Shown piece after piece: positions 4,823 to 22,694 of a DNA stretch of 64,000 bases. The stretch covers positions 32,001 to 96,000 of the forward strand of contig CAVRJG010000038.1 in assembly GCA_963721455.1 (NCBI GenBank), in the 5' to 3' direction. The notes under the pieces are model-generated. The model made no database searches. It was not told the DNA's origin and was given only the letters and a program-made list of their open reading frames with translations. The position numbers were made by a program, and so were the translations under genes. Source of the stretch: an uncultured Methanosarcinaceae archaeon. Lineage in GTDB: Archaea; Halobacteriota; Methanosarcinia; Methanosarcinales; Methanosarcinaceae. Each line of letters starts with the position of its first letter. The stretch's first letter is position 1.

Positions 4823-7048
4823 GTGATAGAGTTGTTGAATCGAATGTTAAAAATCTTTTTTTTTACAGGCTTCTTTATACTTACATGCGTTCCTGTTGTT
4901 TTGTGCATGACACCTGCACCAATAGTCTACGTTGCGGGAGATGGCAGTGGTGATTTCAACTGTTCTGGAGATAACGATCAAGTACAAATTAACGAGGCCC
5001 TTACATATGTTGCCGAAAACTTCGAATATACAACGGTCTACCTCAAGGGACCTTTCACATACGTCATAGACGATACTCTTCAGATTGGTGGCAACACAAT
5101 CCTTGAAGGAGACTCCACTGCTGTGATCAAATTGGCTGATCATGCGGGCTGGCCGAAAGAAAAACCTATAATTAAACAAATGGACAGCGTCGGAAACCAG
5201 GATATTATTATACGCGGTTTTACTATTGATGGAAACCGAGAAGAAAATACCAATGTAATAAGCGGAGGAGGCTACTACAATCTTATTCACTTGAGCGATT
5301 GCCAGAACATAAGTGTGTATAATATGTATCTGACCAATAACCACGGAGACGGCTTAAAGACTGACAATTGTTCTAACGTAAAATCCTATAATAATACGGC
5401 ATACTCATTAGGGCATGATGCTCTATATGCCATTGCCTGTTCAAATGTGGAAGCCTATAACAACACAATAACCTGTAGAACGAATAGTGGCCTGAGATTA
5501 TATAACACAAACCATGCAAGTTTCTACAATAACACTATTACCTCCGAAAATTCCGGAGGTGCAGGAATTGAAATCCAGAAGGACGGATCGTATTCCACAA
5601 TGGATGATATTGAGGTATACAATAACGTAATATACAACACTGCGCTTTCAGGAATTTTGGTTTTCGGATCAGAAAATTATTCCACGTCCTCAGCAAATGT
5701 CCACATCCACCATAACCAGATCTATGATACTGGAACTGGTTCAAGCAGCGAATTTATAGGTGGAATCTTATCCTATGGGTTCAATGGGCTCATTGAGAAC
5801 AACGTGATTGATGGGGCATACGGGGCTGGTATTGTGCAAAATAAGGCATATTATTCGTCTCCGGAGGGTTCAGGGTATTTGATTACGGTAAAAAATAACA
5901 TAATAACGAATACTCGCGCATCAGCAGCCGGAGGGAAAGGGTATGGAATATGTAACCTGCTTACAGACACACACTCTTTTGTCCTGCAGAACAACTCTTT
6001 CTATAACAACGCAGGTGGCGACTATATAGGCGTTGAGCCATCACCTTCGGATATAGTAGCAGACCCTCAATACGCAGATAGGGATAAACACGACTATCAC
6101 CTGAAGTCAAAAGCAGGTCGCTGGGACGGAAACAGTTGGGTAAATGACAATATAAGTTCCCCATGCATCGATGCAGGAGATCCTTTATCGGATTATTCTA
6201 ACGAACCGGAACCCAACGGAGACAGGATCAACATAGGTCTGGATGGAAATACAAGGTATGCCTCAAAATCAGAATTTGATGTGTCATACAATAGTAGTGG
6301 AAACAGTAGCAGTGACAGCAGTGGCAGCAGTGGAGGAAGCAGCCACATCAGCAGTGGTGGTGTCGGCTCTCCCGAACCTGCAAGAAACGTTGAGACTAAG
6401 GAACTTTCACAGGTATTCATTACAAACGACAAAAATATAACGTTTGATTTCGCAAAGAATGCAACCTGTGTTGTTTATGTGAATTTTGATGCAAAAAAGA
6501 CAGTTGGTAAGACAACAGCCATTGTAGAGATGCTGAAAAATAAATCTACTCTGGTTTCAGACCTACCTTCAGGCGAGGTATATAAATCCTTTAATCTCTG
6601 GGTTGGAAACGGTGGATATGGGACCTCAAATAATATAGAAAATCCGGTCGTATGTTTCAAGGTTGAAAAATCCTGGATACAGGAAAAGAATATCAATAAT
6701 TCTTCTATCACCCTGAACAGGTACAATGATACAGAATGGGATCCGCTTTCAACCAACCTGTCAGGGGAAGATGGCGCGTACCTCTATTTCACAGCCAAAA
6801 CCCCTGGATTCTCTCCCTTTGCAATAACAGGTAAGATTAAAGCAAAAGTAACTGTGGCTGAAATACTGCCTGAACCTGACCCTCAGGATCTTGAACAAAA
6901 CGGAAGTATAAAATCAGAAATTGAAAATAAGCCTGAGCAGACAGGAAACACAAGTACTCCTCAGAAAGAAAACGTAAGTATGCCTGGATTTGAAATAGCT
7001 TCTGGGATCGTCTGTCTGCTTGGCGTATTCTTGTACAAAAGAAGATAA
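4823..7048 (+). CDS. Cell-surface protein: right-handed parallel beta-helix (disaggregatase-related) + PGF-pre-PGF domain + PGF-CTERM anchor
   Basis: Signal peptide, VYVAGDGSGDFNC, NNTI repeats, DYHLKS.AGRW, SG-rich linker, SPEPARNV...FTAKTPGFSPFAITG, C-terminal MPGFE-TM-KRR. Confidence 0.9.
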   Translation: MIELLNRMLKIFFFTGFFILTCVPVVLCMTPAPIVYVAGDGSGDFNCSGDNDQVQINEALTYVAENFEYTTVYLKGPFTYVIDDTLQIGGNTILEGDSTAVIKLADHAGWPKEKPIIKQMDSVGNQDIIIRGFTIDGNREENTNVISGGGYYNLIHLSDCQNISVYNMYLTNNHGDGLKTDNCSNVKSYNNTAYSLGHDALYAIACSNVEAYNNTITCRTNSGLRLYNTNHASFYNNTITSENSGGAGIEIQKDGSYSTMDDIEVYNNVIYNTALSGILVFGSENYSTSSANVHIHHNQIYDTGTGSSSEFIGGILSYGFNGLIENNVIDGAYGAGIVQNKAYYSSPEGSGYLITVKNNIITNTRASAAGGKGYGICNLLTDTHSFVLQNNSFYNNAGGDYIGVEPSPSDIVADPQYADRDKHDYHLKSKAGRWDGNSWVNDNISSPCIDAGDPLSDYSNEPEPNGDRINIGLDGNTRYASKSEFDVSYNSSGNSSSDSSGSSGGSSHISSGGVGSPEPARNVETKELSQVFITNDKNITFDFAKNATCVVYVNFDAKKTVGKTTAIVEMLKNKSTLVSDLPSGEVYKSFNLWVGNGGYGTSNNIENPVVCFKVEKSWIQEKNINNSSITLNRYNDTEWDPLSTNLSGEDGAYLYFTAKTPGFSPFAITGKIKAKVTVAEILPEPDPQDLEQNGSIKSEIENKPEQTGNTSTPQKENVSMPGFEIASGIVCLLGVFLYKRR

Positions 7049-7237: not shown

Positions 7238-7290
7238 ATTTTGTTAGCCCTGAATTTGGGGTTCAGAGGGCTGATTCTCAAGAAATATAA
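7238..7290. repeat. Dispersed hairpin repeat A (TTGTTAGCCCTGAATTTGGGGTTCAGAGGGCTGATTCTCAAGAAATA), copy 1
   Basis: Near-identical copy at 10296-10345. Confidence 0.8.
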
Positions 7291-8645: not shown

Positions 8646-8943
8646 ATTACATGAAGCAAAACGCCAAAAATGATAAGCCTTTCACGCTTAACAGCCATGT
8701 TTTGGAGAGGGTTAAGGCTTGGGAAAACGTGGTTTTGGGGGATCAGGCTACCTCAAAAGAAGTTTTATATACGGGCATTTTTGAACAGATAGCTACAAGA
8801 GATAAGCAGATAAGCTAGCTAAACGAAGTGACACAAAAACAGGCAGTATACATTCAGAAATTATTCCGGAGAATAGTAAACTAAACATGAAACTATTGCC
8901 GGAAATCACCGAGAATAATAAACCATGGTGGAAATTTTGGTGA
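8646..8943 (+). pseudogene. Remnant of a coiled-coil protein ending KPWWKFW (plasmid/integrative-element type); first ~190 bp repeated at 10403-10595
   Basis: MKQNAKNDKPFTL...KQIS*LNEVTQKQAVYIQKL, frameshift, then MKLLPEITENNKPWWKFW*. Confidence 0.6.
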
Positions 8944-9164
8944 TACCAAACGAATTCTTTTGAGTATTTTAACGGTCACTTTAAAGTTCATAACAAGTTC
9001 ATTTGTGATCCAAATTGAATTCACTTCTATTCTATGTTGGATTCTTGCGCTAAAAAGCAATACTTATATAATAAAAAATAAGTTTTCAAAATAACTAAGA
9101 GTATTAGAATAGATATATTCCATGTTTATATATAACGGTTAAGTTAAAAAATTACAATTCAGGA

Positions 9165-9389
9165 GTGCTTACAGTGCTCGATTGGATTTATAGTAACAAA
9201 GAATGGCTCTTTGAAGGAATAGGTGTTCTAGCTATATCAACTATTCTAAATAAATTTGTCTTCACTAAGAAAAAGCAACCATTAGACATGAAATATACCA
9301 AACAAGAGCAAAAGTCGGGCAATAATTCTACAAATATACAATCTGCTACGGATATAACATTTTTCCTGTCCTCCAAGGAGGACAAATGA
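9165..9389 (+). CDS. Small single-pass membrane protein with C-terminal QKSGNNSTNIQ motif
   Basis: AGGA RBS, DWIYSNKEWLFEGIGV + TM helix, basic patch; ATGA overlap with the next gene. Confidence 0.75.
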   Translation: MLTVLDWIYSNKEWLFEGIGVLAISTILNKFVFTKKKQPLDMKYTKQEQKSGNNSTNIQSATDITFFLSSKEDK

Positions 9390-10258
9390 TTAATGATAAG
9401 CATCAAACTGGTGGCGATGGATCTACAAATATTCAAGGAAATACTATTAATATTATTACAAATACTAATAATTTTTATACTAACGATCCAGAAGAGCAGG
9501 AAAAACCCAGCAAAGAAGCAGTCTCGCGTCCTCCAGATAACACGCCTCTAGAAGAACCAGAAAGTCATGCAAAAGAATTATTCATTGGGATAATTCTATG
9601 TCTTCTGATATTTAGCGGAGTTGTACTGATAAATGGGGCCGATTATACACCATCGGGGGTCTCACCAGCACCAGAAAATCGGATAACAAGCAATGGTGAT
9701 GGTACGACTTCACAGGTAAATACAACTGTTTCAGATCAACCACTTCCTGTTGCTGACTTTTCGGCAGATATAACATTAGGAAATGCGCCGCTAACAGTTA
9801 AGTTTACAGATATGTCTAAGAATGCAAACGAGTGGAACTGGAACTTAGGAGATAAATTCATTACAAAGGATCAAAGTCCAGAGCATACCTATACAAAAGC
9901 AGGAACTTATACTGTGGAAGAGACCGTAAGTAATGCAAAAGGTAATAGTAAAATGAATAAATTAAATTATATCACTGTTGCACCTCCTCTGCCACCTCTA
10001 GTTGCTAACTTTTCGGCAGACAAAACAGCAGGAAATGCACCACTGACAGTTAGGTTTACCGACAAGAGTGCCGGATCACCCACTAGATGGAAATGGAGTT
10101 TTGGAGATGGAAATACTTCAACCGACTGTAATCCAAAATACACCTATTCAACAGCCGGAACTTATACGGTGAAAGAAACCGTGTTTAGAGAAACCATAAG
10201 TAATCAAACTGAGAGTAAAAATGAAAGAAAAATAAATTATATCACTGTTTGGAGGTAG
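9386..10258 (+). CDS. Single-pass membrane protein with N-terminal QTGGDGSTNIQ motif and two PKD domains
   Basis: GGAGG RBS; TM LFIGIILCLLIFSGVVLI; two PVA.FSAD...GNAPLTV.FTD.S...W.W..GD...HTY..AGTYTV repeats. Confidence 0.88.
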   Translation: MINDKHQTGGDGSTNIQGNTINIITNTNNFYTNDPEEQEKPSKEAVSRPPDNTPLEEPESHAKELFIGIILCLLIFSGVVLINGADYTPSGVSPAPENRITSNGDGTTSQVNTTVSDQPLPVADFSADITLGNAPLTVKFTDMSKNANEWNWNLGDKFITKDQSPEHTYTKAGTYTVEETVSNAKGNSKMNKLNYITVAPPLPPLVANFSADKTAGNAPLTVRFTDKSAGSPTRWKWSFGDGNTSTDCNPKYTYSTAGTYTVKETVFRETISNQTESKNERKINYITVWR

Positions 10259-10295: not shown

Positions 10296-10345
10296 TTTGT
10301 TAGCCCTGAATTTGGGGTTCTGAAAGTCGATTCTCAAGAAATAAG
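10296..10345. repeat. Dispersed hairpin repeat A, copy 2
   Basis: Matches 7238-7290. Confidence 0.8.
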
Positions 10346-10402
10346 GCAAAAGGATTTCTTATGTTGATTGGAAAAAACTAGGGTTTTCTAAGGGAACTTT
10401 AC

Positions 10403-10595
10403 ATTACATGAAACAAAACGCCAAAAGTGATAAGCCTTTCACGCTCAACAGCCATGTTTTGGAGAGGGTTAAAGCTTGGGAAAACTTAGTTCTGGGGGTT
10501 AAGTTAACCTCTAAAGTCGGTTTATTTATAGACACTCTATGAACTGATAGCAGAAAAGACGAGCAGATAGGCAAGCTTAGTGAAGCACACAGAAG
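10403..10595 (+). repeat. Direct repeat B, copy 2 (of 8646-8835)
   Basis: ATTACATGAA.CAAAACGCCAAAA.TGATAAGCCTTTCACGCT.AACAGCCATGTTTTGGAGAGGGTTAA.GCTTGGGAAAAC shared. Confidence 0.85.
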
Positions 10596-11059
10596 CAAGA
10601 GATAAGATACAGGGAAAGAAGAAGGAGCCCCTGATTAAGAAGTTATGTAAAAACTGCAATAAACCCTTCTTCCCACTTTCAGCAGTAAAATTTCAGTATT
10701 TAACATTTTTACTGTTAACGATTCTCAATATAACATAAATTTATGGACTTTTGTACAGGAATTAAAGGTGGGTATGTATGAATTTAAAGACCAAAAAATG
10801 ACAGCATTCAATTTTCATCGAGTTTCATTTTGATTTTAGATTATTTTCAAATTTTCAAAAACGTTATCGAAGAAATAGTGATTTCCGAAAAAAAATACTT
10901 CGGAATGTGGGTTCTTTACAGAAAACCCGAAAAAGAAACATGTTCCTGAAGGGTTATATACTCGGATTAAAAAAGAAGCAAAAAGAGAATTGAAATATTA
11001 ATTATCCTGCTTTTTGACAACCCATTTACCATTATCTGAAACCATAATTCCAGATTCTA

Positions 11060-13833
11060 TTAACTCTTTGTATTACCTGCACTCTCAATTCCTTTAGAGT
11101 GTTCACCCAACAGTTTAGCATTCTGAGTACGCATATGGTCAGCACCTAGTTTATTTTCGAATATCTGCAGCGAGCGTTCAAATAGGGGTAAAGCATAATC
11201 GCCCTTTCCAGCACATCCGTCAATAATTCCTAGATCCAATAATGATATTGCGAAATCAACGTGATCATTTCCTAGACTTTTCCCCCGAATATCAAGTGCC
11301 TGTTGGCAAAATTCGTGAGCTTTTTCAAATTCATGTGTTTCAATATAGAGATTTCCCATGTTGTTCATAATTAATGCAACCATGGAGTGTTCCTGTCCCA
11401 GACTATTTCTAGCTGTATTTAAGGCTCTTTGATAAAATTCGAGGGCTTTCTCATAATTATCCATTATGCGATATGTAACAGCTATGTTATTTAATAAACT
11501 CACAACCTTTGAGTTTTCTGACCCTAAATGATATTCAGTTACTTGTAAAGCTCGTTGATAAGCCTCCAATGCATCATCGCATCTATGCATATATTGATAA
11601 GCAGATCCTAAATTGGCTAATGTTTCTGCAATAATTATGTGATTTTCTTCCAATTTCTCTTCTGCAATTTCAACAGCCCTTTGACAGTATTTCACCCCAT
11701 CTTCAATATTGTCCATTAGAGTACACAGCGCCCCTAAGGTGGACAGGCTTTGTGCAACTACAGGATGTTTAGGGCCAAGCTTTTTTTTGTTTATATTAAA
11801 TGCTTTTTGAGCAAGGGCAAAAGCTTCGTTATAATTACCTAATTGCTGATGAATTACTGCTAGATTTTCTGCCGTTTTAGCAACTTCGAGATCTTCTTCC
11901 CCCAAAAGAGCTTCTCGAACAATTAGAGCTTCCTGGCATAGCTCCATTGCTTTGTTATACTGACCTAAGAATTGATAAGTCATTGCCATATTTTGTTGTA
12001 CAAGTGCAAAATAAAGAGGCTCTTTGTTAACTTCATTCTGAAGTATGTAAAGTGCCTTTTGTTGCAGTGTAAGCGCTTTTTCATACTCACCAATACCCGT
12101 ATAAGAATTTGCTAAATCGTTAGATGCCATTGCAATTGCAAGGTCATCAATTACAAGGTCAACCCCTCTATATTTTTTGCCTAAATTTTTTTCATATATT
12201 TCAAGAACTTGTTGGTAATACGATATTGCTTCGTTGTATCTCCCTCTATCTTCACTTAAATAAGCTAATTTTTTCGTAAGAATTCCAACATAAGGATGTT
12301 CTGGCCCGAGCCTTTCCTTAAAAACCTCAACAAGATCGTTAAACATCGGATAAATTGTTTTCCAGTATCCAGCTTTATCAAATGTTTCGGTATATTCAAT
12401 AATCCATCCACCTAAGTCGTCGAATTCCAATACTTCTTTTGCATGATAATAAGCTTCGATTAATGCAATTTCATGTTCTTGGGTGATCGATTTTACATCG
12501 ATGTCTTTGATTTTATTACTATAGTAATTATGCAAAAATAGATGAACTTCTTTTCTATATGTCGCATCTTGATGTTCTTGAAGACTTTTCCTCATTAACT
12601 GGTGGAGTGAAAAACTATCATCCTTGACCTCTTTAATAAAAGAATATTTAATCAAGTCTGTAAATTCGCCAGATGAATAAGTTGGATTGAATTTTTTTAT
12701 CAATAATTCAAATAGATTTCGATCCCATGAATTCGGTGCTGAAAGTATATTAAGAGTTCTTTTTTCATTTTTATCAAGGTACTTCACAAACGTGTCAAAT
12801 ATCTCTTTCTTTGTACCTGCGAAGTTTTTAGCTTCGGGTTTTTTGTTCCTACTTACTTGCTCGTAAGTATCAACAGACAGGTTAAGGTAGTATGGAACTC
12901 CTTCGCTTGCTTTAACTATTACACCTCGAATGTCTTCCTCTTCTATATATTCGTTTAAGAATTGTTCACTATATTTTTCTGGTAGATCCTCTATCAGGCA
13001 CTCTTTATACACATTTTCCCAGTCTTGCTCGTCGTCTACCCAGAGTGATTTTATCTGTTCTCTCCCACATATTACCCATGAGACTCCTGGCATATTGGGA
13101 ATTAGGCATTCTCGTATCCATTTATCTTTTTCATGAAACTACCTTTTCCCCGCAGTCTGTCCCAAAGAGCTTCATAAGTATCAATAAAAATACAAGCTCT
13201 TGAATTATGCCTAAACTACCTGTAAAATCTGCAGCAAAAATACCAGGCAATTTCTTTTCGATTTCATGAGCTTCCATAGATTCAAGTTTATTTATGTCTA
13301 TAGGCAACTCTCTCAAAAATCTTCTACTTTTTCAGGGGCTTGTTTATAGTATCAACTATCCGTTTTGCAGGTATCGATCTAAAGGTCCAAATGCGGTTTC
13401 ATTAAGAGCATTTAGTACACTCGTGAAAAAACCATCTTCTTTAATCATTGGATATGTCTCTTTATTCAACGGAATATCAGGCCTACTTTTTTTTCGAAAA
13501 TATGGCATGAGCCAAGTTAAACGATAAAACCTCACATTGCGTTTTTTCTGAATTTTGTTCCTGAGTGCTATTAAAAAAGTACTCACATTTCTATGGGATC
13601 GTTTTCCAAATCCATAGATACCCAAAGCATTTCAGGGTAATCTCCGTGTTCAATATATATTGCAACTCATGTTGCAACTCGCTTTTACCAATGCCTGCTA
13701 TACCATAGTAAAATAGAGCATTATAATCTTGATTATTAGGGTTTTGAATGAAGTTTTTAAAATTATCAATGCAAGTTTCGCGATCAACAAAAACTCTTTC
13801 CTTCCTAAAATAATCAGTCGGATGAAGTGCCAT
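11060..13833 (-). pseudogene. STAND/NLR-like P-loop ATPase + TPR protein, frameshifted in the ATPase region
   Basis: Pieces 13591-13833 (FVDRE, Walker A GIAGIGKS), 13356-13625, 13131-13316 and 11060-13093 (WVICGRE, SEGVPYYL, FSLHQLMR winged helix, ~10 TPRs of LG.EHP.VA type). Confidence 0.8.
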
Positions 13834-17174: not shown

Positions 17175-20100
17175 TTAGTAGAGGTTTTCGCTGGAACGTT
17201 CTTCGTTTTGAATGCATTTTAAGGCTTCAAGTTTCCTTTTCGCATCTGCCATGTCAGGATAGAGGCGCAGGATTTCACTGAAAGTCCTTATGGCTTCGTC
17301 GTACTTTTCCATTTTTCCGAGGATAACTCCTCTGTAATTCATGGACTGGGCATCGCGGGGGTTTATTCTGAGCAGTTTGTCAAAGGCTTTCAGGGCTTCC
17401 TCGTATTCTCCGATTTTTGCAAGGGAGATGCCGAAATATTTCAGGGACTGCTCGTGCCAGGGGTTAAGGGCTAGGGCTTCGCCAAATGCCCTGCATGCAG
17501 TCTCGTAAAGTTTCTGTTTGAAGCAGACAACCCCTACATTATAGATTGCTTTGATGTTCTCAGGGTCTTTTTCCAGCACAAGGTCAAAAGACCGCAGGGC
17601 TTCCCTGTACAGTTCGAGCGTGCAGAAGGCAATTCCCTTATAGTTCAGGGCATCGAGGTTCTCAGGGGAGATCTCAAGGATGCGGTCAAAATAGCTCAGG
17701 GATTCCTGCGCCCGGTCAAGCTTGATAAGGGTCGTGGCTGCGTTGTAAAGGGCTTCTTCATTCTTCGGATTGAAAAGTGCGGCTTTTTCAAAGGCTTTCA
17801 GGGCTTCTTCCGGGCTTTCGAGTTCCAGAAGGCAGAGCCCCAGATAGTTCAGGCTTTCAGGGTCTTCGGGCGCGGCTTCCAGCAGCATTCCAAAGGTTTC
17901 GGCAGCAGCCTCGTACTCTTCAAGGTTGAAAAGCACAAGAGCGCTGTGATAGAGGGCTTCCCTGTGCGCCGGGTCTTGCTCCAGAATTATACCAAAAGCC
18001 TCCAGGGCTTTTTCATATTCCTCAAGCTCCATTCTGGCAATCCCGAGCCTGTAACAGGCTTCAATAAAGTCCGGGAAATCAGGGGCAAGCAGGAGTACCC
18101 TTTCAAGGTCCCGCGCAGCTTCCTTGAAGTGCTGGAGCTTGAAATTAGCCACTGACCGGCTGTAGAGAGCGTTTATGTTTTCAGGGTTCAGGACCAGAGC
18201 CGAGTTGAAAGCCAGGCGGGCTTCCTCGTAACCATCCAGTCCAAGAAGGGCAAGCCCCTTTTGCTCCCAGGCAGCTTCCAGAGCCGAATCGAGCTCCACT
18301 GCCCTTTCAAAAGCTTCTACCGCTTGCTGGTCCCGTTCAAGCCCCCTTAAAGCAAGCCCTGTTACGTACCAGATATCTGCAGCCTCTGGTTTTGCCTCGA
18401 GGATTTTTCCAAATGCCTCAAGGGCTGCTTCATAGCCTCCCAATTTGAGCTGGGCAAGCCCCATTTTCGTCCAGGCGTCTCCTGTCTCGAAATCATTTAA
18501 TTTATTTTTCAATCCGGGGCTTTCCTTCTGGTTTTCCAGGACAGCCTGCTCGAAGGCTTCGAGGGCTTCAGCATAGTATTCCAGAGAAAAGAGAGCAAGC
18601 CCTCTCCCGTACCATGCCTTTTCAAAGTCCGGATAGAGCGAAAGAAGTTCTGAAAACACCTCAAGGGCTTCTTCCAGCCTGCCGAGTTCCAGAAGCACAA
18701 TCCCTTTGCCGTAAAGAAGCTCTTTCGAAGCTGGTCTGCTCGCTGTAAGCTTTCCAAGTGGCAGCAGGGCTTCTTCATATTTCCCAAGTTTTATCAGGGA
18801 GGATGCAAACCTTTCAAGGAGCTCTCCAAAAGCCTGAGAGTTTTCAAAAGCCGGATTTTCTCCTGTACTTTCTCCTCCGTTTTCTTCCATATCCTCCCCG
18901 GTGTTTCCCCTATTAAAGTTCTCAGCTGCAAGTTCGAGAAGGGAATTAACCGCAGAAACAGCTTCTTCCAGCCTTCCGAGTTCAAAGAGGGCAAGGGCTT
19001 TCTTGTGCAGAACCTCAGGGTCGGTTGCTCCTGCTTTAAGGGCAATGTCAAAGGCTTCCACTGCTTTTTCATATTCTTCGAGTTCGAAGCAGGAAATTCC
19101 TGCATAATATGGCAATTCGGGCTTCTGGCAGCCGAGGTCAAGCGCGTTTTCAAAGGAGTCCAGGGCTTCTTCAAAGTTCCCCAGCCTGAAAAAGGCAATA
19201 GCTCTGGAGTAATGCAAATCTTCTTTTTTCGGGCAGTATTCCAGAGCCGCTTTAAACGCCTCAACTGCTTCCTGATATTCCTCAAGTTCAAAATGAGTAT
19301 ACCCTTTCTGCTCAAGGGCATAAGTACAGTCAGGCTTCAGTTTAAGGACTGAATCAAAGATGGCTGAAGCCTCCTTTACTTCTCCAAAGGCTTTTAACAC
19401 AACCCCTTTTCTAAAAAGGATTGTTTTTCGCTCCGGATTCTTCCTCAGAACCATATCAAAGATCTCAAGAGCTTCTGCGTAAAGCCCCTGTTTGAAGCAG
19501 GCTGTGCTCAGGTGTGCAAGAGCTTCAACATTGGACGGCCCCCTCTTAATGACCTCCCTGAAACCTGAAGCAGATTCTTCATATCTTCCTGACCGTAATA
19601 GAGAGAGGCTCTTCATGTAAAGAGCATCAGGGTTTCCGAAGTCTGTTTTAAGTACTGTCTCAAAAGCTCTTAAGGCACCCTCAAAATTCCCCAATTCGAA
19701 ACAGGAAAGCCCAAGCTGGTAACAGGCGTCCTGGAAGGCAGGGTCGATTTCAAGGACTTTTTTGAAGTCCCTGACAGCATCCTCATGCTGCTTTAGTTTT
19801 GAGTGGGATATGCCTCTTAAATACCAGGCTTCTGCAAACAGGGAATCCTGTTCAATAAGCCTTGAAAAAACCTCAAGCGCTTTTTCATAAGCTTCCTGCC
19901 TGATAAGTACACGTCCTTTCCAGTAAAGCGCAGAGGAGTTCTGTGCAGAGGGATCCCGTGCAGAGGAGTTTTGTGCAAAAGAATTTTTCCCGGAACCCTC
20001 AGCCATCTCTTCAAAAACAGAAAGGGCTTTATCGTACTTTCCTGATTCGAAGCTGGCAATCCCAAGATAATACCTGGCTTCTTCCCTGCCAGGGTCAAGT

Positions 20101-22694
20101 TCCAGCACTCTGGAAAAAGCTTCAGCTGCCTCTTCATACCTTTTCAACTGCAGAAGAGAGAATGCCACGTTGTTGAGAGCAGAAAGGTTTTCGGGATCTC
20201 TTTCGAGCACAGCTTCCAGAGCTGCCAGGGCAGTTTCGTACTGTTCGGTTTCAAAGAGGCAGAGAGCCCTGTACTCGAGAGCTTCCTTCATTTCGGGGTT
20301 CAGGCTGACAGCTGACTCAAAAGCACAGGCTGCTTCTCCTGGCATGTGTATTCTGTACAGGCTAAGGCCTTTGTAGTACCAGAGAATATCGGAATCCGGT
20401 CTTTCATTAAGAGCGCTCTCAAAGGTTTCAAGGGCAGGGACATACCTTTCAAGCTGTATCTGCGCAAAACCTTTGTAAGTCCGGGCGTCATCGTAATCGG
20501 GGTTCTTTATATCATTATAATTGGAATTCTTTATATCCTCAAAATTAGCATCCTTTACAATTACTTCATCAAAGGCTTTTATAGCATCTTCAAAACGTTC
20601 CAGTTTTATCAGGGCAAGCCCTTTTCTGTACCAGGCTTCCCTGGACTCCGGCTTTTGGCAGAGCACCTGTTCAAACGCCTGCAGTGCAGTTTCATATTTC
20701 CCGAGTTCCATTGCAAGTTTTCCTTTCCTGCACTGGATTTCCAGAGCTTCGGGATTCTTTGCAGCAAGCTTTTCAAAGGTTTCCAGAGCTTCTTCCGGTT
20801 TTCCAAGTTCCAGCTGTGCAACCGCAAGGTCGTATAAGATATCCGGGTAATCCGGATTAAGAGAGAGAACTTTTTCAAGGCATTCCAGGGCAGTTTCCTT
20901 TCTTCCCAGCTTGAGCAGGGCTATTCCCCTTTTGTAAATAGAATCGAGATCTTCAGGGCTTGTTTTGAGGACTTCGGCAAAGGCTTCATCTGCTTTTTCG
21001 TATTCTTCGGCAGCCAGTAAAATTAGCCCTCTGTTTCTCCAGGCATCCTCAAAGTCAGGCCTGAGCCTGATAGCTTCTTCAAAAGCCTCGATGGCTTCCT
21101 CCGGTTTTCCAAGCTTTACGAGCACGATTCCTTTTTTATTCCACCCTTTCTCAAGATAAGGATTCAGCCGCAGAACTTCCTCAAAGGCTTTCAGGGCTTC
21201 TTCATAACGTTCCATGGAATAAAGTGCAAAACCCTTATTCATCCAGCAGGCTTCGTACTCGGGTTTAAGCTCCGCAGCTTTCTCAAGAGCCTTCAGGGCA
21301 GGCTCGAATTTTCCGCTATCAAGGAAAATTAGCCCTTGCTTGAGCCAGAGATTGCAGTTATCGGGTTCTTTCTCAAGACTATATGCAAGAGACTCAAGGG
21401 CTTCTTCAAATCGTTTTAGCTCTACCAGTACAGTGCCCCTGAACTTCTGGGCCTCGGTGAATCCCGGGTTGTATTCAAGCATGGAATCGAAAGCGTTGAG
21501 GGCTTCTTCGTATTTCCCTGTTCTGGCAAGCAAGCGCCCCCGCTGGAACCACGCGTCTCCATACGCAGGATCCAGTTCGGTAACCCTGGAAAAAGATTGT
21601 GCAGCTTCCTTAAAGCGCTGCAGTTTCAGGAGAGCAAGAGCTCTGTTATACCAGATTTCCTTCATTTCCGGATAAACTGCAAGCACGGAGTCAAAGGCTT
21701 CGATGGCTTCTTCGTAGACCTCAAGTTTCATGAGAGCAAAGCATTTGTAGTTCCAGGCTTCGAAATAAGCGGGATCAAGCCTGATTGATTCCTCAAAAGC
21801 ATCAATTGCTTCATTTAGCCTGAGCAGCTGGATAAGAGCAAGGCCTTTCCTGAGCCAGATTTCTTTGTTCCCTGGATTGAGTTTCAGTATTTTCGAAAAG
21901 GTTTTTTCGGCGTCCTCATAGCGGGAAAGTTCGCTTAAGAGTATGCCCCTGTGATAGAGAGCAGTCTCGCTGGCAGGAAATTTTCTTAAAAATGCGTCAA
22001 TACATTCCAGAGCTTCCTCACTTCTCCCGAGCTTTTCCAGTGAAAAACATCTCTGTTCCCAGGCATCTGTATGCTTAGAGTTTTCCCTGATCAGAGAATT
22101 AAAGCATTCAAGTGCCTTTTCATGTTCTTCAAGCTTTGCAAAAACCAGCCCTTTTGCGTAGCAGGCTTCTGAATTTTTCGGGTTGATTTTAAGTGCATTT
22201 CCGAGACTTTCCAGGGCTTCTTCGTACCTGCCAGCTTTTCCAGCCACTGTCCCTCTGGCATACCAGGCGGTTCCGCATTCAGGTTCAAGTTCAAGCACTT
22301 TCTCAAAACAAAGAATTGAAGCTTCAGCCCGTCCCATTTCGGCAAATACAAGCCCTTTCCGGTACCAGATTTTCGGATTTTCGGGATTTATTTCAAGCGC
22401 ATCATCATAGGCTTCCAGTGCTTCTCCGAGCCTTCCGAGGGTTGCCAGAGCTGTTCCTTTCTTATAAAGGGCATCGGAATTTTCTGGCTCTAACTGCAGG
22501 AACTGGTCAAAAGAGTCGAGAGCTTCTTCCGGTTTTTTAATTTCCAGCAGGGCGAGTCCCCTGTTGAAAAAGGCTCCTGTGTGACTGTGGTCTTTGTCCA
22601 GAATTTTATTGAAAACATTAATCGATTTTTCGTACCTTTTGTGTTTAACCAGGTCAAGGCCTCTTTGAAAGGCTTCATCGTTATTGATAAGCAA
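17175..22694 (-). CDS. Giant TPR protein (1839 aa, roughly 50 TPRs)
   Basis: Continuous 34-aa W..KG..L..LG.YEEA...F..AL...P repeats; TTG start with GGAGGAG RBS. Confidence 0.93.
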   Translation of the reverse strand: MLINNDEAFQRGLDLVKHKRYEKSINVFNKILDKDHSHTGAFFNRGLALLEIKKPEEALDSFDQFLQLEPENSDALYKKGTALATLGRLGEALEAYDDALEINPENPKIWYRKGLVFAEMGRAEASILCFEKVLELEPECGTAWYARGTVAGKAGRYEEALESLGNALKINPKNSEACYAKGLVFAKLEEHEKALECFNSLIRENSKHTDAWEQRCFSLEKLGRSEEALECIDAFLRKFPASETALYHRGILLSELSRYEDAEKTFSKILKLNPGNKEIWLRKGLALIQLLRLNEAIDAFEESIRLDPAYFEAWNYKCFALMKLEVYEEAIEAFDSVLAVYPEMKEIWYNRALALLKLQRFKEAAQSFSRVTELDPAYGDAWFQRGRLLARTGKYEEALNAFDSMLEYNPGFTEAQKFRGTVLVELKRFEEALESLAYSLEKEPDNCNLWLKQGLIFLDSGKFEPALKALEKAAELKPEYEACWMNKGFALYSMERYEEALKAFEEVLRLNPYLEKGWNKKGIVLVKLGKPEEAIEAFEEAIRLRPDFEDAWRNRGLILLAAEEYEKADEAFAEVLKTSPEDLDSIYKRGIALLKLGRKETALECLEKVLSLNPDYPDILYDLAVAQLELGKPEEALETFEKLAAKNPEALEIQCRKGKLAMELGKYETALQAFEQVLCQKPESREAWYRKGLALIKLERFEDAIKAFDEVIVKDANFEDIKNSNYNDIKNPDYDDARTYKGFAQIQLERYVPALETFESALNERPDSDILWYYKGLSLYRIHMPGEAACAFESAVSLNPEMKEALEYRALCLFETEQYETALAALEAVLERDPENLSALNNVAFSLLQLKRYEEAAEAFSRVLELDPGREEARYYLGIASFESGKYDKALSVFEEMAEGSGKNSFAQNSSARDPSAQNSSALYWKGRVLIRQEAYEKALEVFSRLIEQDSLFAEAWYLRGISHSKLKQHEDAVRDFKKVLEIDPAFQDACYQLGLSCFELGNFEGALRAFETVLKTDFGNPDALYMKSLSLLRSGRYEESASGFREVIKRGPSNVEALAHLSTACFKQGLYAEALEIFDMVLRKNPERKTILFRKGVVLKAFGEVKEASAIFDSVLKLKPDCTYALEQKGYTHFELEEYQEAVEAFKAALEYCPKKEDLHYSRAIAFFRLGNFEEALDSFENALDLGCQKPELPYYAGISCFELEEYEKAVEAFDIALKAGATDPEVLHKKALALFELGRLEEAVSAVNSLLELAAENFNRGNTGEDMEENGGESTGENPAFENSQAFGELLERFASSLIKLGKYEEALLPLGKLTASRPASKELLYGKGIVLLELGRLEEALEVFSELLSLYPDFEKAWYGRGLALFSLEYYAEALEAFEQAVLENQKESPGLKNKLNDFETGDAWTKMGLAQLKLGGYEAALEAFGKILEAKPEAADIWYVTGLALRGLERDQQAVEAFERAVELDSALEAAWEQKGLALLGLDGYEEARLAFNSALVLNPENINALYSRSVANFKLQHFKEAARDLERVLLLAPDFPDFIEACYRLGIARMELEEYEKALEAFGIILEQDPAHREALYHSALVLFNLEEYEAAAETFGMLLEAAPEDPESLNYLGLCLLELESPEEALKAFEKAALFNPKNEEALYNAATTLIKLDRAQESLSYFDRILEISPENLDALNYKGIAFCTLELYREALRSFDLVLEKDPENIKAIYNVGVVCFKQKLYETACRAFGEALALNPWHEQSLKYFGISLAKIGEYEEALKAFDKLLRINPRDAQSMNYRGVILGKMEKYDEAIRTFSEILRLYPDMADAKRKLEALKCIQNEERSSENLY

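Follow-up and report, generated by a model that had tools for sequence, protein, structure and literature searches.

We found that two overlapping genes at 9165-10258 in a 64,000-nucleotide (nt) stretch of DNA from an uncultured Methanosarcinaceae archaeon (assembly GCA_963721455.1, contig CAVRJG010000038.1, positions 32,001 to 96,000; the whole stretch is called the window below) share a short polar motif, located at the C-terminus of the first product, a small membrane protein, and at the N-terminus of the second, a transmembrane (TM) protein with two PKD domains. The shared-motif gene pair is real, and the defense-type two-gene cassette to which it belongs is widespread in bacteria and rare in archaea. 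Our preferred reading, which we hold to be probable, is that the pair is a lineage-specific chimeric member of this cassette, that the cassette acts through amyloid-type assembly, and that the fusion to PKD domains is likelier a by-product of recombination than a selected receptor.

The shared motif in the window and across the family

The features of the pair are as follows (aa, amino acids; +, forward strand):

9125-9134 (+): archaeal TATA-box-like element TTTATATATA, ~40 nt 5′ of the likely start of the small gene, read from the sequence
9161-9165 (+): AGGAG ribosome-binding site of the small gene
9174-9389 (+): small membrane protein gene, 71 aa from GTG 9174; alternatively 74 aa from GTG 9165
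9195-9212 (+): NKEWLF family signature, at the outer end of the TM helix of the small protein
9207-9263 (+): single hydrophobic (TM) segment of the small protein, from hydropathy, followed by TKKK
9303-9362 (+): C-terminal shared motif of the small protein, QEQKSGNNSTNIQSATDITF, corresponding to the family tail consensus
9374-9381 (+): ribosome-binding site AAGGAGGA of the partner gene, within the 3′ end of the small gene
9386-10258 (+): partner gene, 290 aa, with the motif at the N-terminus, then a Pro-rich, acidic linker, a TM helix, and two PKD domains
9386-9487 (+): partner-type N-terminus, residues 1-34, with the motif core at 9398-9457; homologous to the N-termini of LPO_1073-family partners
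9491-10249 (+): residues 36-288, with linker, TM helix (9575-9637), and PKD domains (~9743-9985 and ~9998-10249), from a family of ~925-aa TM-PKD proteins

The small open reading frame (ORF) at 9165-9389 (+) ends in ...QEQKSGNNSTNIQSATDITFFLSSKEDK (extended C-terminal stretch, ...KQEQKSGNNSTNIQSATDITFFLSSKEDK), the partner ORF at 9386-10258 (+) starts with MINDKHQTGGDGSTNIQGNTINI, and G-x-x-S-T-N-I-Q is present in both proteins. The two ORFs are joined by an ATGA overlap (ATG at 9386, TGA at 9387-9389), which suggests that their translation is coupled. The small gene more likely starts at GTG 9174 than at GTG 9165, because AGGAG lies 8 nt upstream of the former and G078, a genome of the same genus, has ATG at the aligned codon. 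The aligned region of G078 keeps TTTATATA as its TATA-like element and has an identical CAATTCAGGAGTGCTTAC at the ribosome-binding site of the small gene; we take TTTATATATA at 9125-9134 to be a putative promoter.

In the six-frame ORFs of at least 50 aa from the 3.94-Mb genome (7.88 million residues), STNIQ and G..STN[IVL]Q occur only twice, both times at this locus. Local alignment of the small-protein tail with the first 70 aa of the partner returned a score of 39, which was matched by 91 of 20000 shuffles and by the N-termini of 4 of the 3220 genomic ORFs of at least 150 aa. By itself, then, the window pair is moderately significant, and suggestive rather than compelling. We regard the shared motif as solid because the pairing is conserved throughout the family.

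An initial homolog search with the small protein yielded four relatives, including one from a Bacillales bacterium, and a four-sequence profile matched 1389 cluster representatives among 1.84 billion (E ≤ 1e-3; clusters at 50% identity), most of them 56-75 aa long. We refer to this unnamed family, defined in the present analysis with a motif ending in N-[ILV]-Q-x-G-x-D, as the NKEWLFSG family. Its layout comprises ~11 aa, one TM helix, a basic stretch, and a Q/N/G/S-rich tail of ~20 aa, and the window protein displays each part of the pattern (NKEWLFEGIG, TKKK, and SGNNSTNIQSATD). Among 81 aligned members, N, W, and a G are invariant in the N-K-E-W-x-F-S-G-x-G signature, with K, F, and a G nearly so, and N and Q are invariant in the tail motif. 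The tail consensus over 79 members is Q-x-Q-K-S-G-x-N-S-T-N-I-Q-x-G-x-D-I-x-I, and the motif is rich in N (15.2%), S (15%), Q (13.2%), I (11.3%), and G (10.8%) and poor in P (0.2%) and L (1.7%). The N-terminal part of the small protein is matched by the PADLOC model PDC-M43A (E = 1e-7), which belongs to a candidate system.

Species-representative genomes contained 116 relatives, and 80 loci were retained from these. Almost all of them are bacterial, and they come from many phyla; hosts include Vibrio, Clostridium, Bacteroides, many lineages of metagenome-assembled genomes (MAGs), and a few methanogens, one of the 80 loci being from a Methanolobus MAG. The small form is found at 44 loci, the helix is fused to a longer body at 34, and two are without the signature. 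In the family of the host, the small-gene profile matches 6 of 151 genomes including that of the window (G000), and the small-protein form is present only in G000, G078, and G145.

The downstream partner gene usually overlaps the small gene. We compared the tail with the downstream N-terminus in 43 pairs, i.e., the window pair and those 42 of the 44 small-form loci at which an ORF of 100 aa or more lies within reach downstream. The similarity exceeds the 99th percentile of shuffles in 40 of the 43 pairs; the remaining three are L005, L009, and L056, and in L005 and L009 the core is still visibly common to both copies. The mean pair score was 53.4, vs. 40.8 with permuted partners and 44.2 when permutation was confined to partner size classes, and in neither case did any of 20000 permutations reach the observed mean. 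Rare residues are also common to both copies within a pair, such as K-N-Y-Q in L021 and Cys in L063. The window pair ranks 31 of 43 for its own small protein. These results bear out the initial annotation, made from the window sequence, in its claim that a motif at the C-terminus of one gene recurs at the N-terminus of its neighbor: the two copies co-vary across the family.

It could still be argued that the similarity in the window is due to chance or to a DNA-level repeat, and that the small ORF is not a gene. The alignment score is occasionally matched at random, as given above, the motif-coding DNA forms a 24-nt direct repeat of 79% identity (9318-9341 and 9413-9436), and the small ORF belongs to no family in Pfam or NCBIfam (NCBIfam models gave no match at E ≤ 1). 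Against this stand the 1389 homologous cluster representatives, a pairing kept across many phyla and in diverged DNA, the co-variation of the motif copies, and the conservation of ribosome-binding sites and upstream region in G078. This explanation is contradicted already, and we consider it extremely unlikely. A role of the 24-nt repeat in RNA structure was rejected, the repeat being direct and not inverted.

Partner bodies, the PKD chimera, and its surroundings

The partners at the 42 related loci differ widely in their bodies. The LPO_1073/Vpar_1526 domain (NF045477, scored as present when the 257-position domain model matches with >45 bits) occurs in 24, so that a link to these genes, which the initial annotation had offered, proved correct. 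Another 12 partners (~1266-1914 aa) carry PF24407 and/or PF20698, the latter being the PIN domain of TPR-GreAB-C-PIN (TGP) systems, and we call them TGP-like. Two partners resemble signal transduction ATPases with numerous domains (STAND), namely L014, with weak NACHT matches below the cut-off, and L056, with an NB-ARC match of 29.3 bits and a motif match that is not significant. Four have no family (L007, L020, L027, and L037). No peptidase domain was found in any partner scanned.

The congener G078 carries yet another body. Its 74-aa homolog of the small protein is followed by a 199-aa protein starting with MFNGRQQNGGNDSTYNQ, an 81-aa ORF, and an ATPase that matches the PADLOC model PDC-M68B and LmuB-like models; the operon corresponds to PADLOC PDC-M68A/B, an ABC/SMC-type defense candidate. 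The three-gene layout may resemble that of 'ABC-3C' systems. The DNA of G000 and G078 is 73-76% identical from the TATA-like box through the motif of the small gene and 65% identical across partner codons 1-22, and the partner bodies beyond are unrelated. As the identity ends after partner codon ~22, partners have been swapped directly 3′ of the partner's motif. Partner swapping, for which the initial annotation had suggested a search, does exist: TGP-like, STAND-like, ABC/SMC-type, and PKD partners all occur.

The AlphaFold2 (AF2) model of the LPO_1073 domain is confidently all-alpha (predicted local distance difference test, pLDDT, 81.7). Foldseek found nothing in the PDB at E ≤ 0.001, a wider structural search returned only designed helical bundles (best Z = 7.9) from which no function could be inferred, and the domain is also represented by a PHROG family of unknown function. 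With a TGP-like partner as query, tblastn gave no match in phages and, on plasmids, only relatives with fused domains. A homolog search recovered only the subfamily with an upstream helix-turn-helix (HTH) and double PIN, without E. coli Agp, and no PDB relatives were found. Some relatives of the HTH-double-PIN TGP-like partners (P0167, P0238, P0253, and similar proteins) are longer by 70-260 aa and align with only 87-97% of the first 400 query residues, which suggests that other N-terminal domains stand where the partners have the motif, as described for TGP systems.

The membrane helix also occurs in other gene arrangements. In L034 (5974-7839), a 622-aa ORF combines the NKEWLFSG helix, one copy of the Q/N/G motif, and TPR_12/TPR_10 repeats in an all-in-one form. 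In L042 (6004-7284), the small gene and an LPO_1073 gene appear to be fused, with both motif copies in one ORF and a run of seven A at the junction; we rejected this as a genuine fusion, since one extra A restores the overlapping two-gene layout and the locus, from a long-read MAG, probably contains a homopolymer error. At eight loci (L071, L076, L082, L083, L053, L058, L062, and L055), the helix heads proteins of ~200 aa, some with an ILFIDD-type stretch, and the ~200-aa gene is followed by an overlapping gene for a ~347-aa protein with a HATPase_c domain. These loci appear to represent a further conserved two-gene system built on the same membrane module.

The window partner itself is, judging from its sequence relationships, a lineage-specific chimera of an LPO_1073-type N-terminus and a fragment of a PKD surface-protein gene. 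Its residues 1-34 align from the Met with the partners at L004, L009, L016, L005, and other loci, with the common pattern MIND-K-x-Q-x-GGD-x-STN-I/L-Q-G-x-x-I-x-I. The LPO_1073 domain (NF045477) had no hit at E ≤ 1 in the window partner and none in the whole genome. Downstream, the protein contains one strongly hydrophobic segment (aa 64-82, Kyte-Doolittle hydropathy, KD, 2.78) and two PKD stretches scoring above the gathering score (PF18911: E = 2e-28, 98.7 bits; PF00801: 74.5 bits). Over residues 36-288, it shares 45% identity with residues 377-629 of a ~925-aa protein of a congener (L102), and DNA and protein matches of congeners to the partner start at window position ~9571. In these congener proteins, a 375-aa N-domain without signal peptide precedes the linker and TM helix that they have in common with the window partner, and four PKD domains follow; of these four, the window partner keeps two, its C-terminal region being lost.

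Three members of the ~925-aa family, L102 (382-3162), L103, and L104, come from congeners G116, G140, and G152, respectively, and their N-domain starts with MNENCYLLLELDFD.... No Pfam, NCBIfam, or PADLOC family was found for the 375-aa N-domain, and Atlas scores did not exceed 0.82. We regard the ~925-aa TM-PKD protein as a candidate transmembrane signaling protein.

The PKD architecture is not conserved. The initial annotation had presented it as a surface receptor paired with the small protein; among 5.8 billion proteins, only P0153 has the N-terminal 115 residues of the partner. P0153 is 93% identical to it, with residues 1-18 unchanged and four changes clustered at residues 27-30, and its end is frameshifted. 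A near-identical product of the small gene, P0001, has a 1-nt deletion in the A-run of the motif, and either frameshift may be a sequencing error. Four metagenome runs yielded only 151-nt low-depth contigs on the PKD part, none of which spans the junction or the small gene.

The pair lies in a variable region rich in repeats and decayed genes. Two repeat features, both on the forward strand, flank it:

8646-8771 (+): upstream direct-repeat copy, 87% identical to 10403-10528 and belonging to an intergenic element present in many copies across the genus
10296-10528 (+): downstream multicopy repeats; 10296-10343 shares 90% identity with 7240-7287, and 10403-10528 is the counterpart of 8646-8771

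The stretch 10296-10600 has hundreds of matches, distributed over all 58 congeneric genomes searched, and represents a multicopy element found throughout the genus; the copy at 7240-7287 sits 3′ of a disaggregatase-related gene. Adjoining the pair is a gene resembling STAND proteins or NOD-like receptors (NLRs) at 11060-13833 on the reverse strand (-), broken by several frameshifts into a fragment with the P-loop GIAGIGKS (13591-13833), further fragments (13356-13631 and 13131-13331), and a TPR part of 677 aa (11060-13093, TPR_12/TPR_10). The last of these was considered as an NLR partner and rejected, being the C-terminal part of the frameshifted STAND gene and on the other strand. No STNIQ-type motif was found at the N-terminus of the broken gene (from 13833 downwards). 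One flank of the variable region is formed by a beta-helix surface protein that is related to disaggregatase and whose end is PGF-CTERM-like (4823-7048), and the other by a 1839-aa ORF consisting almost entirely of TPR-like repeats (17175-22694, -).

Topology, proposed mechanism, and rival explanations

The distribution of charged residues predicts that the small protein is oriented N-out/C-in, with its tail in the cytoplasm: it has one K or R before the helix and five after it, and 78 of 93 family members have more K and R after the helix than before. Two congeners have proteins that begin with a signal peptide and are anchored at their C-terminus by a related segment (NIQWIFSGVG...KK), and the N-out/C-in orientation is therefore required there. 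These anchor-bearing proteins, L087 (280-1650, in G124) and L088 (1459-2535, in G063), are secreted or lipoprotein-like repeat proteins with a Lys/Asp/Glu-rich tail. The partners elsewhere are soluble and without signal peptide, so their N-terminal motifs are cytoplasmic. In the PKD protein, the 63 residues that precede the TM helix are acidic, lack a signal peptide, and stand in place of the 375-aa cytoplasmic domain; the coherent reading is that the protein is N-in with its PKD domains outside. Both motifs are thus predicted to be cytoplasmic, and the arrangement that the initial annotation had named as fatal to its proposal, with motifs on opposite faces of the membrane, is not the one predicted.

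We propose the following mechanism. The constant part of the cassette is the small protein, with a short N-terminus predicted to lie outside, an NKEWLFSG-type TM helix, and a Q/N/G/S-rich tail predicted to be cytoplasmic. The variable part is the product of the next gene, whose first ~25 residues repeat the motif and whose body is an LPO_1073/Vpar_1526 protein, a TPR-HTH-PIN protein, a STAND NTPase, or the product of the first gene in an ABC/SMC-ATPase defense-candidate operon. Inside the cell, the two motifs would bind each other through homotypic assembly of beta-strands. If Bab/Agp and HET-S/NWD2 are a guide, a partner that has been triggered would seed the assembly of the small-protein tails, and this may cluster the TM helices and damage the membrane, resulting in abortive infection. 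In the window, the partner would sit N-in with its PKD domains outside and its motif beside the tail of the small protein.

If the cassette works in this way, the PKD protein could be a selected receptor: an extracellular cue (a virus, a neighboring cell, or a polymer) would cluster it, and its motif would nucleate amyloid-like assembly of the effector. Much is in keeping with such a role. The ORFs are intact and apparently coupled in translation, and the TATA-like box, both ribosome-binding sites, and the ATGA overlap have been kept; the fusion is in-frame, its junction lies in the cytoplasmic linker, and it is coherent in structure and topology, with both motifs predicted inside and the PKD domains outside. 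The chimera persists in P0153, a copy from another data set that is 7% diverged in protein and unchanged in the motif core. The ~925-aa PKD family already couples a cytoplasmic N-domain to PKD ectodomains via the same TM helix, and some partners in EACC1 systems, in the part of their description available to us, combine a TM helix with an extracellular domain (PMC7159879). Against a receptor speak the occurrence of the architecture in no other genome (P0153 alone having the N-terminal 115 aa, and the small gene being present in only 6 of 151 family genomes), the loss of two of four PKD domains and of the C-terminal region, the low rank of the window pair in motif score (31 of 43), the frameshift in one of the two genes in both near-identical database copies (P0001 and P0153), and surroundings full of repeats with a broken STAND gene. 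On balance, we think that the fusion is likely a by-product of recombination in a decaying variable region rather than a selected outside-in receptor, and that a selected receptor role for the chimera is doubtful; the full receptor scenario with its extracellular cue and amyloid-like effector assembly we consider unlikely. Quite unlikely is the boldest version, in which the NKEWLFSG peptide, the motif, and the first ~25 partner codons make up a portable amyloid-type cassette that is open to nearly any sensor body and has here captured a transmembrane PKD ectodomain, giving the first outside-in receptor-driven amyloid switch and the first working archaeal module.

The motif might also be a constitutive docking element, such as a two-strand beta-zipper or a small hetero-oligomer, that tethers a soluble partner with neither templating nor killing; its role in the window would be no more than to keep two membrane proteins side by side. 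The NKEWLFSG helix is fused directly to other bodies in 34 of the 80 loci, including the single ORF of L034 with its helix, one motif, and TPR repeats. In addition, co-variation is expected of any specific interface, and co-translation from overlapping frames suits stoichiometric complexes. However, a ~20-aa motif that is Q/N/G/S-rich, P/L-poor, and disordered in monomer models is typical of amyloid signaling motifs as these are characterized in the published sections available to us. The tested analog with a TGP-type partner, as far as its report was available, acts by templated assembly and abortive infection, and a TM signature so extremely conserved suggests a role beyond anchoring. We find the docking explanation somewhat unlikely.

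Several observations weigh against the reading we prefer, i.e., a chimeric member of an amyloid-type cassette with the fusion as a by-product. The by-product part has to contend with the intact, in-frame, and topologically coherent genes, the retained signals, and the unchanged residues 1-18 of the diverged copy, all described above. For the amyloid part, the single-ORF form L034 fits a plain linker or tether role equally well. In the AF2 monomer model of the LPO_1073 protein the motif segment is a low-confidence coil (pLDDT 41-45), and in the AF2 model of the L042 read-through ORF both motif copies have pLDDT <50 and are unpaired, the second copy being poorly covered by the alignment. K makes up 6.1% of the tail motif and is not depleted, unlike the bias reported for bacterial amyloid signaling sequence (BASS) motifs. 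The best 19-aa hydrophobic window of the small protein (aa 15-33) is borderline (KD 1.59), and the small protein differs from BASS and HET-s effectors in being neither of Bell nor of HeLo type and in having no Pfam or NCBIfam family. Complex prediction with the small-protein tail (aa 30-71) and partner residues 1-42 returned a score of 0.02 (mark 0.32), and makes no call either way.

Comparison with known systems and significance

The closest tested analog of the cassette appears to be the Bab/Agp system of E. coli ECOR25, in which, according to the part of the report available to us, a small membrane-targeting protein (Bab) and a TGP-type protein (Agp) share a fibril-forming amyloid motif of ~20 aa (BASS11), which abortive infection against T5 requires and which is exchangeable with HET-S/NWD2 parts (10.1101/2024.11.07.622273). 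In both cases the motif stands at the C-terminus of a small membrane protein and again at the N-terminus of the product of the adjacent gene, and the TGP-like partners at 12 of the 42 related loci extend the likeness; the Bab/Agp motif is also described there as disordered until assembly. The differences are considerable. Bab, as described there, is a helical 'Babybell' domain of 109 aa whose N-terminus carries a MEPIS-type helix, whereas the small protein here has a single NKEWLFSG TM helix. Agp is TPR-GreA/B-C-PIN in layout and 1094 aa long, whereas the TGP-like partners here, of ~1266 aa, are of the HTH-upstream-double-PIN type, and the window's own partner is a PKD protein and not a TGP protein. 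The BASS11 residues named in the available text (I87 G88 S89 V90, Q92, D99, and N100), by which alone the two motifs were compared, have no obvious mapping onto the motif.

BASS motifs more generally are described, in the part of the source we had, as rich in Q/N/G/V/I, poor in P/L, governed by an adjacent-gene logic, and largely limited to multicellular Actinobacteria and Cyanobacteria (bioRxiv 10.1101/2020.01.06.895854). The cassette resembles HET-S/NWD2 and BASS1-10, as presented there, in this adjacent-gene logic, in motif length (~20-25 aa), in Q/N/G-rich and P/L-poor, though not K-poor, composition, in the greater similarity of copies inside pairs, and in its alternative effector or partner domains. 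It differs in the receptor, which in those systems is an NB-ARC or NACHT NLR and here is STAND-like in only two of the 42 related loci and not in the window, and in its hosts, which range from Vibrio, Clostridium, and Bacteroides to the MAG lineages and the few methanogens.

EACC1 two-gene systems, in the available part of their description, likewise have a small constant protein as the 5′ gene, with one strongly conserved Gly-containing TM helix, and a variable 3′ partner; unlike the partners scanned here, those of EACC1 typically have a caspase-like peptidase at their start, and a shared terminal motif is not described in that part (PMC7159879). Effector-associated domains (EADs; Kaur et al. 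2020/2021) resemble the motif, on the same partial basis, in that one short module occurs on an effector and a sensor encoded side by side, with adjacent copies more alike (PMC7159879), and TGP proteins have been proposed to trigger a back-up effector through EAD-like adaptors, in the portion of the paper at hand (PMC8195603). Unlike the motif, which is a ~20-aa peptide, EADs are folded helical domains. An EACC1 model is presumably included in NCBIfam, where the small protein found no match at the threshold given above.

The two halves of the window partner have separate affinities. Its first 34 residues are like those of partners with the commonest body, LPO_1073/Vpar_1526 (NF045477), the domain itself being absent, and its linker, TM helix, and PKD domains (residues 36-288) are like those of the ~925-aa TM-PKD proteins such as L102, from which it differs in having a 34-aa motif segment in place of the 375-aa N-domain and two PKD domains in place of four. 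We found no paper that describes the NKEWLFSG peptide, the motif, or its pairing with LPO_1073 genes; supplements, which may list the motif, were outside the search, and a relation of the motif to BASS11 is possible. No literature was found for the PADLOC candidates PDC-M43, PDC-M68, and PDC-M54.

Amyloid-type transfer from a sensor to a membrane executioner is established for fungal NLRs. Amyloid-type signaling was recently shown for one E. coli antiphage system, as reported in the part of that paper available to us (10.1101/2024.11.07.622273). Amyloid- or adaptor-type pairs of effector and sensor are of an already known kind; what is new is an effector with a single TM helix, far simpler than known ones, a set of mostly uncharacterized partners, and, in the window, a PKD body that is unusual but may be accidental. 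The cassette family, with ~1400 clusters, is apparently undescribed in bacteria and archaea. The PKD chimera indicates that the cassette readily acquires new bodies, with the recombination break directly after the partner's motif. The cassette is carried by ordinary unicellular bacteria and by a few methanogens, and if the motif works like BASS11, such motifs would not be tied to multicellular bacteria. The LPO_1073/Vpar_1526 proteins and several PADLOC candidates would then gain a testable mechanism, and the cassette would represent a minimal two-peptide system for templated assembly at the membrane.

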